The notes under the pieces are model-generated. The model did no database searches. It saw only the letters and a list, made by a program, of their open reading frames with translations, and was not told the DNA's origin. A program made the translations under genes and the position numbers. A stretch of 32,000 nucleotides of DNA from Ktedonobacterales bacterium (GTDB taxonomy: Bacteria > Chloroflexota > Ktedonobacteria > Ktedonobacterales > JADMIN01). The stretch spans positions 4,830,001 to 4,862,000 of the forward strand of contig CP126532.1 of NCBI GenBank assembly GCA_030167145.1, in the 5' to 3' direction. Shown piece by piece: positions 20,653 to 32,000 of this stretch; position 1 is the stretch's first letter, and every line of letters starts with the position of its first letter.

Positions 20653-21112
20653 CTCGGATGCAGTGACCTGTTTGGGTCATCAGGTACGTGCTCACGGCAG
20701 CACAGACGATTTCACCCATTTCGGCAGGAACTATGCCGACGCGACGGCTCCTCTGGCTTCATTACAACTCTATAATCTGCTCTCCCCGAATGTCGTCTCG
20801 CCAGAGGGATTTGGCAAGGGGATTGAGGATGTTTCGCACCTCCTGCTGCTCGTGGCCCCATGTCGTCGCTCGCATTGCGGCTCGGCAGCTAGCACGCAGC
20901 GGATGTGGAAGACGTCGGTAGGTAGGGGCAAGTGCGGAGAAGTTTCAGCGACCATGGAGATACAGGCATATAATAGCAGCAGCGGCTTTCGCGGCCAGGC
21001 GCAGGTTGGGTGTGCACGTGACGTGACACCTCCTGTGCGCCGTGTCACGGTCGCTGGCGGGTGCCGCCACTGCCGCTCCGTAACCGATGCTGCCGCGATG
21101 AGGGAGGTGAGC

Positions 21113-25995: not shown

Positions 25996-26137
25996 CCCGC
26001 TCTGGCCTCCCCGTGCGCACACTTCGCCCGCTGCGGCTCACTTCGGCCCGGCGGGCGAGTCGCTACCTTTTTCTGATGTGTCTGGATAGTACTCAGATCG
26101 CCGCCAGAAAGCCGCTGCGGCACGGCTGCTGAGGGCA

Positions 26138-26746
26138 TCAAGCATGCCCAGACGATGTCACGAGCCGAATGCGCACCAACACCACGAAGTGCGCTGCCTG
26201 CTGGACGGCGTTGAGGTCGGGCTGACCATCGACATCCAGCGGGACGTGATATGCCCGCGCCATGCTGGGATGTTCGCGCAGATGCGCACGTAATGCGGCG
26301 GCAATAGCTGGCCAGTCGTGGGTGATTGCTTCAGCCGTGCCTGCGAAGCGCTGACGCTTGACTTCCACGACAACCGGCGCGCCTCTTTCCACATTCTTCC
26401 ACCAGGTATGGTGCGTAAACACGGTGACCACGTCGCCCACTCGCGAATAGGCGACCGGAATCGTATAGCGTCTGCCGCTCGTGCGGCCCGTGTAGGTGAG
26501 CAATAGCAGGGTGTCGCTCAGCACACCGTGGAACGGCGAACGTAAGAGCAGTCGTACCAGCGGGTTCACTGCGGTCATCTTCGGCGGGGCTTTCGGCGGC
26601 TGGATCACTGTGCCTTCGGGTTCAGCCTCGGGTTGGGGATGTAGGTACTCAATGGCCAGCGTGCGCTGCTGCTCGAATGGGTTCGGCAACGAGTCTGGCC
26701 CGGCAGGTGCTGGCGCGTGCGGCACTGGGTGTGGTGGCATGTACAT
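26138..26746 (-). CDS. DUF385 / deazaflavin-dependent nitroreductase-like (split-barrel) protein with Pro-rich N-terminal extension
   Basis: The ATG at 26746 lies 6 nt after AAGGAG. The core LLLLTYTGRTSGRRYTIPVAY...VVVEVKRQRFAGTAEAI resembles the F420H2-dependent reductase family. Confidence 0.55.
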   Translation of the reverse strand: MYMPPHPVPHAPAPAGPDSLPNPFEQQRTLAIEYLHPQPEAEPEGTVIQPPKAPPKMTAVNPLVRLLLRSPFHGVLSDTLLLLTYTGRTSGRRYTIPVAYSRVGDVVTVFTHHTWWKNVERGAPVVVEVKRQRFAGTAEAITHDWPAIAAALRAHLREHPSMARAYHVPLDVDGQPDLNAVQQAAHFVVLVRIRLVTSSGHA

Positions 26747-26910
26747 ATGGCACTCCTTTGGCGGTCGGCAATCAGCCCCTTCATGCCTATGATAGTCCCG
26801 CCACTTCACATAGGCGTCACGCGTGAGGCTGCACCATCACACGCATCTCTCAAGACGAGGTGCCTGACCAGGTATATGGCGCATTCGCAAAAGTGGTTCA
26901 AATGATGTGT

Positions 26911-26950
26911 TGTCAGGTATGGTCAGATGCCGTCAGATGGGGTCAGATAC
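26911..26950 (+). repeat. Four helically phased 10-bp direct repeats GTCAG(A/G)Tnnn
   Basis: gtcaggtatg / gtcagatgcc / gtcagatggg / gtcagatacg, starting at exactly 26911, 26921, 26931 and 26941. Confidence 0.9.
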
Positions 26951-27015
26951 GGCCAAGAGGCGCCATGGATCCGCGGGGATAGGGGTGAGGGTGCGGCCAG
27001 GACGTCGCTTCACTG

Positions 27016-27045
27016 TTGACAGGATGGTGTGCGCTTCTGCATAAC
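27016..27045 (+). promoter_or_regulatory. Putative promoter of the imuB-dnaE2 cassette
   Basis: TTGACA (27016-27021), 18-nt spacer, -10-like CATAAC (27040-27045). Confidence 0.5.
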
Positions 27046-27048
27046 GAT

Positions 27049-27062
27049 AGAACATGCGTTCT
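27049..27062. promoter_or_regulatory. LexA (SOS) box, GAAC-N4-GTTC type
   Basis: AGAAC ATGC GTTCT has perfect palindromic arms. It lies directly after the -10 and 27 nt before the imuB ATG. It is the only such site I found in the window. Confidence 0.75.
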
Positions 27063-27088
27063 TGTTTAGCGAAAGGGAGGCGGTCGGT

Positions 27089-28543
27089 ATGCGTGAGCTA
27101 CAGGCGGACGATGTGGTGTGCGCGGCGCTGCCGGAGGTGGGGGCAGCAGACGTGGTGGGGACGGCTGAGTATGTGGCGTGGGTGCAAATCCAAGATGTTC
27201 ACCGTGCGCTAGGTGCGGATACGGCGCAATGGGACCAGACATGGCAGCGGCTGTGCTGGCAGGTGACGGCACGGATGGAGATCGTGGAGGGTAGAGAGGA
27301 TGGGAAGGCGGAACTTAAGGGGAGCGATACGCATGGAGCGCATAGAGCGGGCGCACTGGCGGGCAGCCCTCTTCGGAACGACTCAGAGGGACTGCGCTTC
27401 ACTGGTGCGCTGCTGGCGCTGGGGTGGTGCGCGGCGACGGAGGCGGCGGGTGTGGCGCACGGGCTGGTGGGACGGCTGGCGGCGGCAGGCTACCGGGCGC
27501 GGATGGGCATCGGGCCAAATGCGACGCTGGCGCAATTGGCGCTCCAGTGCGGGAGAGCGGCGAGCAAGCTGAAGGGGCAAACGGTGGTGGTGGTGACGCC
27601 GGGGGAGGCGGTGGAGCGGTTGCTGGCGCGGACGCCGGTGGGGGCGCTGGCGGGGCTGCATCCGCGCGGGGTGGTGACGGCGGAGACGGTGGAACGATTG
27701 CGGCGGTATGGGCTGCGGACGTTGGGGCAGGTGGCGCGGCTGGTGGAACGCTCCGGGGAGGTGGCGCTGCGGCGGCAGTTTGGCCCAGTGGTGGGGGGCG
27801 CGCTGGTGGCGCTGGCACGGGGCGAGGAGCTACGTCCGTTGCAGCCGACGATGCAGCCGGAGACGTTGCGCTGTCGAGTGCGCTGGGTGATGGGTGGCTC
27901 GGCGACACAGGTGGGGGTAGGGCTGGGGAGGCTGGCAGAGCGAATCGCGGGGACGCTGGCGGAACGGGAGCAGGCGGCGGGACGGCTGCGGCTGCGGGTG
28001 GTATGGGCGCATGGTGGGGTGACGGAAGCGGAAACGCGGCTGCGCGAGCGCATCTCTGAGGCGCGACGGGTGGCGGAGGGTCTGCGGGCGCTGTGGGAGC
28101 AGTTCGTGGACCAGGACACCGACCACGGCGCAGAACATAGGGAAAATGGGCAAGGCAGGCAAGGCTGGGAGCGGCGCGCTGAGGTAGCAGACGTGGCAGT
28201 GGAGATAGAGGATTTGGTGGTGGTGCGACCAGCGCAGGGGGCCTTCTGGAAAGGGAGCGTGCAGCAGAATGCGACACTTTCGGTGCTCCGTGCGCGCGTG
28301 CGCGAGCGATTTGGTACGGGGTCGCAGGGGTTGGGACAGATCACATGTGTCGCGCCGGAGGCGGTGTTTGCGGAAGAGCGGTATGTGGTGGATGAGGGGA
28401 GCGATGAACAGATGGGCGGGCACCCGACACGGCCCACGCGGCTGGCAGGGGAGCGAGCGGCAGTGAGGACGGCAGACGGCAGCGCGGAGCGCGTCTGTGG
28501 CAATCCCTGGGCGGACGTGCCGCTGCGCTTGCATTGGTGGTGA
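27089..28543 (+). CDS. imuB: ImuB-like Y-family DNA polymerase homologue (probably catalytically inactive)
   Basis: The ATG at 27089 lies 8 nt after AAGGGAGG. MGIGPNATLAQLAL corresponds to the Y-family GIAPNKxLAK motif. An HhH/thumb region follows (LPVGALAGLHP...VERLRRYGLRTLGQVARL), then little-finger-like strands (RLRLRVVW...VAVEIEDLVVV), then QGAFW (28235-28249), a candidate beta-clamp motif. I could not recognise an N-terminal acidic catalytic triad. Confidence 0.8.
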   Translation: MRELQADDVVCAALPEVGAADVVGTAEYVAWVQIQDVHRALGADTAQWDQTWQRLCWQVTARMEIVEGREDGKAELKGSDTHGAHRAGALAGSPLRNDSEGLRFTGALLALGWCAATEAAGVAHGLVGRLAAAGYRARMGIGPNATLAQLALQCGRAASKLKGQTVVVVTPGEAVERLLARTPVGALAGLHPRGVVTAETVERLRRYGLRTLGQVARLVERSGEVALRRQFGPVVGGALVALARGEELRPLQPTMQPETLRCRVRWVMGGSATQVGVGLGRLAERIAGTLAEREQAAGRLRLRVVWAHGGVTEAETRLRERISEARRVAEGLRALWEQFVDQDTDHGAEHRENGQGRQGWERRAEVADVAVEIEDLVVVRPAQGAFWKGSVQQNATLSVLRARVRERFGTGSQGLGQITCVAPEAVFAEERYVVDEGSDEQMGGHPTRPTRLAGERAAVRTADGSAERVCGNPWADVPLRLHWW

Positions 28544-28550
28544 GCAAGCC

Positions 28551-28889
28551 ATGGGCCATGTGTATTCGCAGGTGATTGCGGTGATAACTGCTGCTGCGGG
28601 GGAACGACCGGAGCGGCTGGTATGGCGTGGGCGAGAGTATACGGTGGCGGAGGTGCTGAGCACGTGGCGGCTGCGGGATCGCTGGTGGGAGGAGCTGCCA
28701 CCACTTTCGGATGCACTCGAACCAGGAGAGCAACCACAACCTGGACAACCAGGGCACGGCCAGGGGCGACGGTTGGGAGGTGCGAGCGAGCGGACGTACT
28801 GGCGGGTGCGGTGCGTAGAGGGGATGATCTGCGACGTGTATGAAGATGCGGCGCGGGGGGTGTGGATGCTGGATAAGGTCTATGACTGA
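28551..28889 (+). CDS. Small W/R-rich protein (112 aa) wedged between imuB and dnaE2; possible detached ImuB C-terminal module
   Basis: The ATG at 28551 lies 7 nt after the imuB stop, with GGTGGTGAG as an SD-like element. NNG codon periodicity resumes exactly at this ATG. The stop overlaps the dnaE2 ATG by 8 nt. Sequence motifs: ...WRLRDRWWEE...YWRVRC...GVWMLDKVYD. Confidence 0.7.
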   Translation: MGHVYSQVIAVITAAAGERPERLVWRGREYTVAEVLSTWRLRDRWWEELPPLSDALEPGEQPQPGQPGHGQGRRLGGASERTYWRVRCVEGMICDVYEDAARGVWMLDKVYD

Positions 28890-31800
28890 GATGCTGACAG
28901 AGAGCGAGCGAGCAGCAGGCAAGGATACAGGCGGCGGTGGGAGAGCAGACGGCAGACGTTGGGAGACGCCACTCAACGGCGATGCGGGAACAGGTACAGG
29001 GCCTACAGAGTACGGGGACTACGTGGAGTTGCACTCCGCGAGCGCGTACAGTTTCCGGCGGGCGGGGAGTAGCGTGGAGGCGTTGGTGGCGCGGGCGGTG
29101 GCGCGGGCGGCGGCGCTGGGGACGGAGCGGGGCATACGGGCGCTGGCGCTGACGGACGAGATGACGCTGGCGGGGGTGGTGCGCTTCCAGGCGGCGTGCG
29201 CGGAACACGGGGTGAAGGGGATCGTGGGCTGCGCGCTGGCGGTGAGCGAGCCGCACTTTGGGACGGGGGCGGCGGGGCGACAACCGGCGGAAGTGGTGGC
29301 GCTGGCGGAGAATCAGACGGGGTATGCGCGGCTGTGTGCGTTGCTGACGGCGGCGAATCTGCGTGCGCCCGATGCGCCGGTGATTGCTTTCGCAGAACTG
29401 GCGGCGGAGCCAGAAGGGCTGATCTTGCTGACGGGTGGGCCAGAGGCGGGGACGCTGGCGCGGTTGGTGCGGGCGGGACGGCGGCAGGAGGCGGTGGCGG
29501 TGGCGCGGCGGTACCATGCGGTGTTTGGCGCAGAGCGAGTGTTCGTGGAGGTGCAGCAGCAGCGGTTGCCGGAGAGCGTGGGGCTGATGCAGGGGTTGGT
29601 GGAGGTGGCGGCAGAGGCGGGGCTGCGGGTGGTGGCGACCAATGGGGTGCGCTATGCGACACGGGCGGAGTACGCGGTGTATGACCTGCTGACCTGTGTG
29701 CGGCTGGGCATCTCGGTGGATGTGGCGCACCGGGAGCGGCCACGCAATGACGAGGCGTATCTGAAGTCGGATGCGGAGATGCGGGCGCTGTTCGCGGGGC
29801 TGCCGTGGGGGGAAGCGGCGCTGGCGGCGACGGGGGAGATTGCGGGGCGGTGCGCGGTGGCGCTGCTGCGGGGGACGTGTACGGCTCCGGCGGTGGCGCT
29901 GGCGGATGGGGAGACGCCGGACGAGCGGCTGGCGGCGCTGTGTGAGGAGGGGTTGTGGACGCGGTATGGAGCGCCTGTGGGACGGGATGCAGGCGACGGG
30001 CAAGGGCAGGTTGGGCAGGTTGGGCAGGTTGGGCAGGTTGGGCAGGTTGGGCAGGTTGGGCAGGTTGGGCAGGTTGGGCAGGTTGGGCAGGTTGGGTGGA
30101 CGAGAATACAGGCAGAGGGCGAGGCAGGCCTCGCCCCTACACCGTCCCCACCAGCAGCAGAGCAGTTGCCAGAAGAGGCGATGCCAGAAGCATTGCGGGC
30201 GGGGAGTGCGCCGCGGCGGCAACTGGCGCATGAGTTGGACGTGATTGGGCGGTTAGAGTTGGCGGAGTTTTTTTTGTGTGTGCGGGAGATGGTGAGCGCG
30301 GCGCGGGGGATGGGGGTGCGCATCAGCGGGCGGGGGTCAGCGGCGAACAGCCTGGTGGCGTATCTGCTGGGCATTACCGGGGTGGACCCCATCGCGCATG
30401 GGCTGCTGTTCGAGCGGTTCTTGAATCCAGAGCGGCGGGGGATGCCAGATATTGACCTGGATATTCAGAGCGACCGGCGGGAGGAGGTGATTCGCTGGGT
30501 GGAACGGCGGTACGGCCACGAACATGCGGCGATGGTGGCGAATGTGATGACGTATCGGGCGCGGCTGGCGCTGCGGGATGTGGCGAAGGCGCTGGGGTAT
30601 CCACTCGACGTGGTCAACCAGATGACCAAGGTGCTGCCGCACTACTGCGGGCGAGGGGAGATCGCGGGGTATGCGGAGGAGCTGGCGGGGGTGATTGCGC
30701 GAGCGGCGCAGGGACAGGGCGAGGTAGGCCTCGCCCCTACATCCACCAGACGAAGAGGGTGGACTACAGAGATAGGGCTGCGGCGGCTGCCGCTGGCGCT
30801 GGGGTTGGCGGCGCGGGTGTGTGGGTTGCCCCGGCACCTGAGCTTGCATAATGGGGGGATGGTGCTCTCGCGGGCGCGGCTGGCGGCGGTGTTGCCGGTG
30901 CGGGTCTCGGCGAATGGGGTGCGGGCGCTGGAGGTGGATAAAGACGATGTGGAGCGACTGGGACTGATCAAGTTCGACCTGTTGGGGTTGCGGACGCTGG
31001 GGGCGGTGGCGGAGGCGTTGACGTTGATCGAGGAGACGACGGGGACACGGCCGGATGTGGACCAGTTGCCGACCGAGCCGCCGGATGAACAGACGATGCG
31101 CCTGATCCGGGCGGGGCAGACGCTGGCGGTGTTTCAGATTGAGTCGCCGGGGCAGTGGCATTTGCTGGCGCAGACGCAGCCGGAGACGTTCAATGATCTG
31201 ATCGTACAGACGGCGTTGTTTCGTCCGGGGCCGATTCAGGGCGGGTTTGTGCGGCCGTATGTGGAGCAGCGCAGGGAAAAGCATGGGCAATGGCAGTGGG
31301 AGAGTCTCCAACGGGAGCAACAACAGGCAGAGCAACAACAGGCAGAGCAGCAATGGGCAGAGCAGCGGGATGCGGTGCAGACGCCGTGGCAGAGCGGTCA
31401 GGCGGATACCTTCTGGACGGGGCATGCGGTGCTGGGGCCGATCCTGCGGGAGAGCGAGGGGATTCTACTGTTTCAGGAGCAGATTCTGGAGATTGCGCAT
31501 CAGTTCGCGGGGCTGAGCTATGCCGAGGCGGATGGGTTCCGGCGGGCGATGTCGCATCAACGGGAGCCGGAGCAGATGGCGGCGATGCGGGAGCGGTTCG
31601 TGGCGGGGGCCATCGAGCGGGGGGAGACGGCGGCGGATGCGGAGCGGGTGTTCGGCGCGGTGTCGGCGTTTGTGGGGTATGGGTTCTGCAAGAGCCATGC
31701 GGCGGAGTTCGCGCGGACGATCTATCAGACGGCGTGGCTGAAGGCGCACTATCCGGCGCACTATCTGGCGGCGTTCCTCTCGGCGCAACCTGCGGGGTTC

Positions 31801-32000
31801 TTTCCGCCGCATGTGGTGCTGGAGGAGGCGAAGCTGCTGGGGGTGCCGGTGCTGCCGCCGGAGGTGAACCGGAGCGAGGGGCGGTTCACGGTGGAGTGGG
31901 TGGGGCAGCATGGTACAGCGGGGAGCCGGTATGCGCGGTGGGGGATCCGGATTGGGTTGGCGCAGGTGCGAGGGGTGGGGGAGGAGTTGGCGCGGGCGAT
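28882..32000 (+). CDS. dnaE2: Error-prone DNA polymerase III alpha-subunit paralogue DnaE2 (ImuC); 3' end outside window
   Basis: Own translation of frame 1; the frame is open to the window edge, so it is absent from the ORF track. YVELHSASAYSF (PHP), GRGSAANSLVAYLLGITGVDPI, FERFLNPERRGMPDIDLDI, LPRHLSLHNGGMVLS, GLIKFDLLGLRTLG, VFQIESPGQ, ALFRPGPIQGG, LLFQEQILE, GYGFCKSHAAEFA. An ATG at 28891 is an alternative start. Confidence 0.9.
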   Translation, partial: MTEMLTESERAAGKDTGGGGRADGRRWETPLNGDAGTGTGPTEYGDYVELHSASAYSFRRAGSSVEALVARAVARAAALGTERGIRALALTDEMTLAGVVRFQAACAEHGVKGIVGCALAVSEPHFGTGAAGRQPAEVVALAENQTGYARLCALLTAANLRAPDAPVIAFAELAAEPEGLILLTGGPEAGTLARLVRAGRRQEAVAVARRYHAVFGAERVFVEVQQQRLPESVGLMQGLVEVAAEAGLRVVATNGVRYATRAEYAVYDLLTCVRLGISVDVAHRERPRNDEAYLKSDAEMRALFAGLPWGEAALAATGEIAGRCAVALLRGTCTAPAVALADGETPDERLAALCEEGLWTRYGAPVGRDAGDGQGQVGQVGQVGQVGQVGQVGQVGQVGQVGQVGWTRIQAEGEAGLAPTPSPPAAEQLPEEAMPEALRAGSAPRRQLAHELDVIGRLELAEFFLCVREMVSAARGMGVRISGRGSAANSLVAYLLGITGVDPIAHGLLFERFLNPERRGMPDIDLDIQSDRREEVIRWVERRYGHEHAAMVANVMTYRARLALRDVAKALGYPLDVVNQMTKVLPHYCGRGEIAGYAEELAGVIARAAQGQGEVGLAPTSTRRRGWTTEIGLRRLPLALGLAARVCGLPRHLSLHNGGMVLSRARLAAVLPVRVSANGVRALEVDKDDVERLGLIKFDLLGLRTLGAVAEALTLIEETTGTRPDVDQLPTEPPDEQTMRLIRAGQTLAVFQIESPGQWHLLAQTQPETFNDLIVQTALFRPGPIQGGFVRPYVEQRREKHGQWQWESLQREQQQAEQQQAEQQWAEQRDAVQTPWQSGQADTFWTGHAVLGPILRESEGILLFQEQILEIAHQFAGLSYAEADGFRRAMSHQREPEQMAAMRERFVAGAIERGETAADAERVFGAVSAFVGYGFCKSHAAEFARTIYQTAWLKAHYPAHYLAAFLSAQPAGFFPPHVVLEEAKLLGVPVLPPEVNRSEGRFTVEWVGQHGTAGSRYARWGIRIGLAQVRGVGEELARA
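30004..30096 (+). repeat. Perfect 9-bp tandem repeat (CAGGTTGGG x10) inside dnaE2, encoding (GQV)10
   Basis: Ten identical units span 30007-30096, preceded by ggg. The array is codon-aligned with the dnaE2 frame. Confidence 0.98.
30116..30141 (+). repeat. 26-nt GC-rich palindromic element, copy 1 (in dnaE2 frame)
   Basis: aGGGCGAGGcaggCCTCGCCCctaca: an 8-bp stem GGGCGAGG/CCTCGCCC with a 4-nt loop. 25/26 identical to copy 2. Confidence 0.9.
30716..30741 (+). repeat. 26-nt GC-rich palindromic element, copy 2 (in dnaE2 frame)
   Basis: aGGGCGAGGtaggCCTCGCCCctaca, exactly 600 bp after copy 1 and therefore in the same codon phase. Confidence 0.9.
31315..31374 (+). repeat. Decaying 15-bp tandem repeat inside dnaE2 (EQQQA EQQQA EQQWA EQRDA)
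   Basis: gagcaacaacaggca x2 (perfect), then gagcagcaatgggca, then gagcagcgggatgcg. The array is codon-aligned. Confidence 0.85.

Follow-up and report, generated by a model that had tools for sequence, protein, structure and literature searches.

A perfect 9-bp tandem array and GTAG-type palindromes in dnaE2 of a Ktedonobacterales bacterium: probably a young minisatellite in a permissive loop

We wanted to investigate why the gene of an error-prone DNA polymerase should carry ten identical copies of a 9-bp unit within its reading frame. The array lies in dnaE2 of a Ktedonobacterales bacterium, in a stretch of 32,000 nt of contig CP126532.1 (GCA_030167145.1, positions 4,830,001-4,862,000, forward strand). 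This whole stretch is called the window, and coordinates refer to it. Our answer, to which we assign a probability of roughly 0.7, is that the array is a young slippage minisatellite within a composite, near-neutral insertion, that the rest of this insertion is based on a repetitive extragenic palindrome (REP), and that all of it lies in a disordered loop on the surface of DnaE2, one that tolerates insertions, at the junction of the PHP and palm domains. The features on which this answer rests are the following.

29971-30177, plus strand: lineage-specific insertion of 69 aa, APVGRDAGDGQ(GQV)10GWTRIQAEGEAGLAPTPSPPAAEQLPEE, delimited by alignment with 105 homologues
30004-30096, plus strand: the array, 10.3 perfect copies of GGGCAGGTT, in frame and giving (GQV)10 (Tandem Repeats Finder (TRF), period 9, 100% matches, score 186)
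30094-30116, plus strand: spacer GGGTGGACGAGAATACAGGCAGA, which holds a second W-T-R tripeptide and whose GGGTGGACG part is complementary to CGTCCCCACC at 30144-30153
30117-30140, minus strand: REP copy 1, GTAG plus GGGCGAGGC-CT-GCCTCGCCC, with a 9-bp stem and a 2-nt loop, read as GEAGLAPT in the frame of the gene
30178-30213, plus strand: ancestral 12-residue linker AMPEALRAGSAP, before RRQL (compare GVPEALAAGSPQ in homologue P0012), with a predicted local distance difference test (pLDDT) score of 70-86
30706-30777, plus strand: second in-frame insertion AQGQGEVGLAPTSTRRRGWTTEIG, without counterpart in most orthologues, with REP copy 2 at 30717-30740 on the minus strand

The array was detected in two ways. 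An exact regular-expression search found ten units of CAGGTTGGG at 30007-30096, equivalent to ten units of GGGCAGGTT at 30004-30093, and TRF scored the array as by far the best tandem repeat of the window. Both agree with what an earlier, sequence-only reading had described, namely ten identical codon-aligned 9-bp units giving (GQV)10. That reading had also placed the array between GLWTRYG and RRQLAHELDVIG, and we saw the same in the translation of the DnaE-like open reading frame (ORF), which runs across the array as GQ(GQV)10G. Outside the array the unit occurs once in 32 kb, at 21002. Perfect periodicity over 93 nt is impossible by chance. The units stand head to tail, have a length that is a multiple of 3 and remain in frame, as is typical of a coding minisatellite.

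Further, we determined the extent of the insertion in an alignment with 105 homologues of at least 1000 aa. The span between the flanking motifs was at most 31 residues (linker at most 12) in 85 of the 105 homologues and 100 residues in the window protein, so the expectation that other DnaE alphas have only a short linker at this site was correct. The linker of the orthologues follows the pattern xxPxALxxxSPQ. The insertion is laid out as APVGRDAGDGQ-(GQV)10-GWTRIQAEGEAGLAPTPSPPAAEQLPEE. An insertion had been claimed before, with a length of about 75 aa; the insertion is real, but its length is 69 aa, because the last 12 residues before RRQL, AMPEALRAGSAP, correspond to the linker already present in the ancestor. 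No candidates came from a protein search in which the insertion peptide was the query.

The loop is a site of recurrent insertion. About a dozen homologues have additional, unrelated residues at this position, 114 at most. In P0014 (contig L167, 7000-7235) the same loop contains six copies of the 18-nt sequence CGGCAAAAACGGCAATAC with a period of 42-44 nt, read as RQKRQY and separated by unrelated spacers of approximately 24 nt. The similar peptides RQDRQ and RQKRQ were observed in inserts at a different loop of P0024, P0028, P0035 and P0039. In Taq Pol III alpha, the aligned anchors at positions 323 and 383 are approximately 60 residues apart, and therefore the length of the PHP/palm junction varies naturally.

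We obtained an AlphaFold2 model built with 60 homologues (mean pLDDT 82.8, predicted template modelling score 0.84), in which the insertion is placed between helices 346-362 and 443-457. The pLDDT fell below 50 at three places only, residues 1-43 (an N-terminal extension), 368-419 and 819-838 (a repeat of EQQQA). Of the insertion, residues 368-419 cover the array, the segment 5' of it and the peptide read from the REP. All columns without variation across 61 sequences are conserved in the window protein, among them PDIDLD and the aspartate of KFD. D523 and D525 (PDIDLD) and D699 lie in invariant columns common to the 60 homologues; we take them to be the equivalents of E. coli D401, D403 and D555. 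The polymerase appears functional, and the insert resembles a loose tether.

REPs are small repeats associated with REP-associated tyrosine transposases (RAYTs). The sequence-only reading included the part of the insertion outside the array, yet it missed that this part contains a GTAG-type REP palindrome, which is found again 600 nt farther downstream. On the minus strand the element reads GTAGGGGCGAGGCCTGCCTCGCCC, that is GTAG and then a palindrome, which is the architecture of GTAG-type REPs. The extragenic location implied by the name was not found, as both copies lie in frame inside dnaE2. The 33 nt at 30109-30141 recur at 30709-30741 as a direct repeat with 91% identity; within it, the two REP copies are separated by 1 mismatch, and the stem of copy 2 is 8 bp long. 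A second small hairpin (TCCACC...GGTGGA) follows REP copy 2 within the insertion at 30706-30777. In the 38.5 kb read of the 5.07-Mb source contig, the REP core has 2 copies, both within dnaE2.

To survey the element we scanned one genome per GTDB species with GGCGAGGNAGGCCTCGCCCCTAC. The 23-mer GGCGAGGCAGGCCTCGCCCCTAC was present in at least 119 genome stretches from many phyla (L001-L119). Among the matches listed, these phyla include Planctomycetota, Gemmatimonadota, Acidobacteriota, Actinomycetota, Latescibacterota and Chloroflexota, the flanks are unrelated, and the 23-mer often forms an inverted doublet with GTAGGGGCGACGCCTGCGTCGCCC. Other genomes, among them a metagenome-assembled genome (MAG) of Tepidisphaeraceae, contain multiple copies of it. 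In at least two genomes the REP lies inside an ORF (L030, 496-1029; L019, 5897-6352), between its HUH and Y motifs. Both ORFs match NF047646, 'REP-associated tyrosine transposase', with E-values of 9e-18 and 8e-17, at scores under the curated cut-off (80 bits), and in the RAYT-like ORF of L030 the REP encodes GEAGLAPT, the same peptide as in the window DnaE2.

A second dnaE2 gene provides a parallel. In P0036 (L168, 6931-6957 and 7053-7079) the same PHP/palm loop holds two GTAG REPs of a related class, GGGCGTCC-GCA-GGACGCCCCTAC, with the orientation and the ...GCC CCT ACA (APT) frame seen in the window dnaE2. Since L168 carries two GTAG REPs there, a second lineage has independently acquired such insertions in the same loop. 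GTAG REPs within genes were already reported for DnaE2 and for other repair genes, and the inserts were argued to sit in loops (Di Nocera, De Gregorio & Rocco 2013, BMC Genomics 14:522, PMC3733652).

We then asked what the edges of the insertion tell about its origin. It had been suggested that a W-T-R tripeptide at both edges hints at a duplication junction. The match is real, as GGTTG-TGGACG at 29952 matches GGTTGGGTGGACG at 30090, but it is small. The second copy pairs with CGTCCCCACC downstream of the REP, and therefore it looks like part of the outer stem of the element. A DNA fold likewise pairs the GGGTGGACG and CGTCCCCACC arms around the REP hairpin, and the codon usage of the spacer at 30094-30116 departs from that of the host gene. 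On the other side of the array, 18 nt at 29979-29996 are 72% complementary to 30131-30148, beside the REP. Judged from these complementarities, the insertion may be a degenerate REP doublet, similar to a REPIN (REP doublet forming a hairpin), of which the left half decayed and expanded. Derivation of the unit GGGCAGGTT from the REP arm GGGCGAGGC was considered and set aside as speculation, the match being merely 7/9 with a gap. No DNA secondary structure was predicted in the array (minimum free energy 0), and for this reason we rejected slippage driven by a hairpin.

Composition gives an estimate of age. As described below, dnaE2 and the two genes 5' of it, an imuB-like gene and a DUF6504 gene (together, the cassette), prefer codons that end in G. 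In a sliding window, the use of such codons was 0.10 or lower in exactly three segments, 28897-29013 (the N-terminal extension), 30100-30174 and 30706-30777, and the second insertion at 30706-30777 had a value of 0.08. Since their composition differs from that of dnaE2, the insertions are foreign to the host gene or younger than it. The array uses the Val codon GTT ten times, while outside it GTT accounts for 1 of the 151 Val codons of the cassette, and therefore the array looks young. This contrast fits the recent expansion that had been proposed from the lack of any divergence between the units.

Does such a unit change in number? We scanned metagenomes for three consecutive units and obtained 47 loci, of which 0 had the flanks of the window. 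Twelve contigs (L120, L128, L131, L132, L144, L150, L152, L154, L155, L158, L161 and L165) carry one ORF, MLSPSVYQATALIQV(GQV)nNVTRQ..., with 3, 4 or 5 perfect GGGCAGGTT units in frame, and where it is complete on the contig this ORF has 302, 305 or 308 aa. Since orthologous MLSPSVYQATALIQV ORFs carry 3-5 units, the unit GGGCAGGTT changes its copy number in frame in nature. A second group of arrays in the scan has 3-4 units. The ten copies of the window are near the top of the range, the maximum elsewhere being 11.

Taken together, these results suggest the following course of events. The 9-bp unit would have arisen by duplication between flanking GGG triplets through slipped-strand mispairing, and the array would then have grown longer by replication slippage. 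Changes of length by steps of 9 bp, which keep the frame, probably still occur. The Gly/Gln/Val stretch would only lengthen a flexible tether and would have little effect on the function of the polymerase.

Several points weigh against this interpretation. Among approximately 15 billion proteins we found no second strain at 90% identity or above, and the clusters of ImuB and DUF6504 are singletons. Exact-protein look-ups (ImuB, DUF6504 and an FAD oxidase) returned only the source contig and a contig of the Logan assembly that ends before the array, and exact look-ups of DnaE2 from ATG starts, valid for ATG starts only, gave no match. The link between REPs and tandem arrays is weak and suggestive only. 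A short tandem repeat lies within 100 nt of 14 of 129 REPs, compared with 4.6% of background positions (p=0.003), and some of these repeats are clearly derived from REP stems (L093, L092). Conversely, a GTAG hairpin lies within 120 nt of only 1 of the 47 GGGCAGGTT arrays elsewhere, so we rejected the array as a general companion of REPs. As to origin, the pairing mentioned above suggests that the 33-nt 5' part may be a degenerate inverted REP partner. Finally, we infer near-neutrality from the predicted disorder of the insert and from the conservation of the rest of the protein.

The sequence-only reading had proposed a linker of variable length in the polymerase. On this opposite view the linker is functional, and the number of GQV units would tune the PHP-palm geometry or contacts within the mutasome and so create heritable variation in SOS mutagenesis. 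The 9-bp unit does preserve the frame, the same unit is length-variable in another gene, and a LexA-type box precedes the operon. The authors of PMC3733652 also speculated that the activity of repair genes may be changed by REP inserts. However, disorder is predicted for the insert, and the length of the loop differs freely among homologues as well as between DnaE1 and DnaE2. GQV was absent from all 120 homologues retrieved (0/120), and the other inserts at the loop are unrelated sequences. We therefore consider a tuned linker unlikely and prefer the slippage minisatellite.

Other explanations concern the whole operon. Its features, and the other tandem repeats of dnaE2, are the following.

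27050-27061: LexA-type SOS box GAACATGCGTTC (palindromic, AGAACATGCGTTCT), 28 nt 5' of the imuB-like ATG, the sole perfect GAAC-N4-GTTC in 32 kb
27089-28543, plus strand: imuB-like gene, 484 aa, inactive-Y-family-like, with weak DinB-family matches (E=4e-7); gene call from the source contig
28551-28889, plus strand: DUF6504 gene (Pfam PF20114, E=1.5e-14)
28882-32000 and past the window end, plus strand: dnaE2 (error-prone Pol III alpha), with PHP, DNA_pol3_alpha, finger and HHH_6 domains
26839-32000, and on to the dnaE2 stop at 32871 in the source contig, plus strand: block of G-ending codons and GC skew, about +0.35 (+0.25 to +0.50)
29085-29116, plus strand: 12-bp in-frame repeat, 2.7 copies, coinciding with an 8-aa insert, RAAALGTE, unique to this sequence (TRF, alignment)
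31315-31364, plus strand: 15-bp in-frame repeat, 3.3 copies (EQQQA), another variable loop (TRF; pLDDT <50, residues 819-838)

The host gene contains the Pfam domains PF02811, PF07733, PF17657 and PF14579 and passes the cut-off of TIGR00594 (DnaE superfamily; 630.7 vs 434 bits). The best NCBIfam model is NF004225, 'error-prone DNA polymerase', yet the full 1329 aa score 778.8 bits, below its curated cut-off of 939. The nearest proteins are approximately 70% identical and come from MAGs of Ktedonobacterales (Chloroflexota). The Joint Genome Institute (JGI) annotates these proteins as error-prone DNA polymerase. The LexA-type box is followed by a Shine-Dalgarno motif, GGGAGG, and by ATG 27089. 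The imuB-like and DUF6504 genes stand in this order directly 5' of dnaE2 in 4 of the 6 orthologous loci examined, the exceptions being L167, with a hydrolase gene upstream of the cassette, and L175, with neither gene called upstream. In the orthologous loci L167-L170 and L176, the DUF6504 gene is likewise placed between imuB-like and dnaE2. The identification of the host as a DnaE2-type gene is thus supported by its best model, by its imuB-like and DUF6504 neighbours and by the LexA-type box. Since these neighbours and the lone box occur together, it is reasonable to call the three genes, from their sequence, a predicted SOS mutasome operon.

Some side observations concern the reading frames of this region. 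The true start of dnaE2 may be GTG 29023, with GGGGA 6 nt upstream, instead of ATG 28882. The N-terminal 38-48 codons of the ORF (28882-29025) have at most 10% G-ending codons and a pLDDT below 50. The JGI gene call begins at GTG 29074 and loses the conserved YxELHxxSxxSF motif. An ORF of 913 aa on the minus strand (27490-30231) was rejected as a by-product of the G-skewed composition, the homology being on the plus strand. An RNA gene was rejected as well, as there was no Rfam match in 26000-32000.

The codon usage of the operon is extreme. The share of codons with G at the third position (G3) was 0.63-0.69 and that with C (C3) was 0.12-0.14 in the imuB-like gene, the DUF6504 gene and dnaE2 (overall 0.67 and 0.13, respectively). 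Outside the insertions, 80% of the dnaE2 codons that can end in G do so. In the cassette, GTG makes up 93% and GTC 3% of Val codons, GCG 86% and GCC 1% of Ala codons, and CTC has a share of 3% in its codon family. Third-position C persists only in codons for which a change to G would not be synonymous, as in the AGC:AGT ratio of 27:2 in the operon. The flanking genes are without this regime, which ends at the dnaE2 stop codon, and the insertions in dnaE2 escape it. In the flanking genes and in six orthologous Ktedonobacterales dnaE2 loci C3 was equal to or higher than G3, or the two were roughly balanced, the extreme being G3 0.46 vs C3 0.31 (L169). A literature search on G-ending codon bias at the level of an operon found nothing relevant. 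This operon-confined regime is a more surprising feature than the array.

In such a G-rich region the array might act in cis, its eleven non-template G3 tracts forming G-quadruplexes (G4s) or R-loops that modulate transcription or replication of the operon. The canonical G3N6 motif at 29998-30096 (at least 4 G3 tracts, loops of 1-7 nt) has a G4Hunter score of 1.39, and 3 of the 4 plus-strand G4 motifs of the window fall in the array. In addition, the GC skew of the whole operon is approximately +0.35, and the contig of the short-read Logan assembly ends at the start of the G-rich block. Against this, loops of 6 nt make weak G4s, and for RNA, ViennaRNA with its G-quadruplex option on chose a G-U/G-C hairpin over the G4. 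Windows with a G4Hunter score of 1.5 or higher are common over the operon, which contains 30 of the 33 such windows, so the array is not special as a G4 site. No orthologue has such an array. For these reasons a structural role seems to us quite improbable.

It should also be asked whether the array is a product of assembly or consensus, with a copy number that is wrong or heterogeneous, or created as a whole by mis-assembly. The window is identical to contig Ga0494333_323 (5.07 Mb) of JGI metagenome 3300045419 over the 14.9 kb compared, the array included. The Logan assembly of the same strain (SRR22113990) has 0 mismatches over 12.8 kb and ends at 27396, inside imuB and before the array. One assembly thus covers the array, and because the independent one breaks inside the operon, the array is without an independent assembly. 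The end of the Logan contig (L172) coincides with the start of the G-rich block, and the break may reflect a coverage or assembly problem there. However, the array of 93 bp is shorter than ordinary reads, its flanks form an uninterrupted ORF collinear with the orthologues, and the 5.07-Mb contig agrees base for base with the other assembly over 12.8 kb. Moreover, perfect arrays of whole codons are rarely artefactual. Since the array is only 93 bp long within a collinear ORF, we regard an artefact as no less doubtful than the structural role.

The codon regime invites a bolder idea, that the SOS mutasome operon mutates itself, the recoding of C to G, the tandem duplications and the REP inserts all being footprints of strand-asymmetric error-prone synthesis. 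The dnaE2 gene is rich in repeats, which also speaks for the slippage minisatellite. TRF matches with a score of at least 40 numbered 10 in the window, and 5 of them, including the top three, lie in dnaE2, a gene that takes up 10% of its length (binomial p=0.0015). In orthologues of dnaE2, 0-1 such matches were counted. A further in-frame tandem repeat was seen at 28990-29022. Under self-mutation, the synthesis may be transcription-coupled and take place on the operon's own non-template strand. By analogy with somatic hypermutation, one possible route would be abasic-site bypass with insertion of C, and the array may be a hotspot prone to G4s and R-loops as well as a tether of variable length. 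We think that self-mutation is very improbable.

That dnaE2 is decaying under relaxed selection and filling with repeats toward a pseudogene would agree with its unusual tandem-repeat density, two REPs and several low-complexity inserts, but we rejected this as extremely improbable, because the ORF is intact on Ga0494333_323 (L174) to window-equivalent 32871 with 1329 aa from ATG 28882, the conserved residues described above, catalytic aspartates included, are kept, all inserts are in frame and in low-pLDDT loops, and the LexA-type box and the operon partners are present.

In summary, the array is most likely of little functional consequence itself. As a clean marker, to be sized by polymerase chain reaction, it could reveal if an in-frame minisatellite turns over inside the gene of a mutator polymerase. 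The locus adds a Chloroflexota case to an unexplained published pattern, in which REPs occur preferentially in DnaE2 and repair genes. As REPs entered the same loop in two lineages, it becomes testable whether this loop is a preferred target or the sole place that tolerates insertion.

Compared with known systems, the array and the intragenic REP look like one more case of two known phenomena and not like a new mechanism. The window resembles the intragenic GTAG REPs of PMC3733652 in that GTAG and a short G+C-rich palindrome lie in frame in DnaE2, that two copies occupy separate sites of one gene, and that the insertions sit in loops. It differs from those cases in its Chloroflexota host and in the perfect array of ten 9-bp units beside one REP, which is without description there. 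Rickettsia palindromic elements (RPEs; PMC3733652) are similar as small palindromes that stand in frame in housekeeping genes, which survive; unlike the insert of the window, RPEs are longer, of CGTC type or unrelated, and without a link to tandem arrays. A hypermutable tandem repeat within a gene is also known from the simple-sequence contingency loci of phase variation. Those loci switch genes on and off by frameshifts, with units that are not a multiple of 3, which a 9-bp unit cannot do. The closest counterpart of the array is the coding minisatellite (variable number of tandem repeats) of the metagenomic MLSPSVYQATALIQV ORF, with the same unit GGGCAGGTT, the same GQV frame and perfect copies that preserve the frame, although the host protein is different and polymorphism (3-5 copies) is shown only there.

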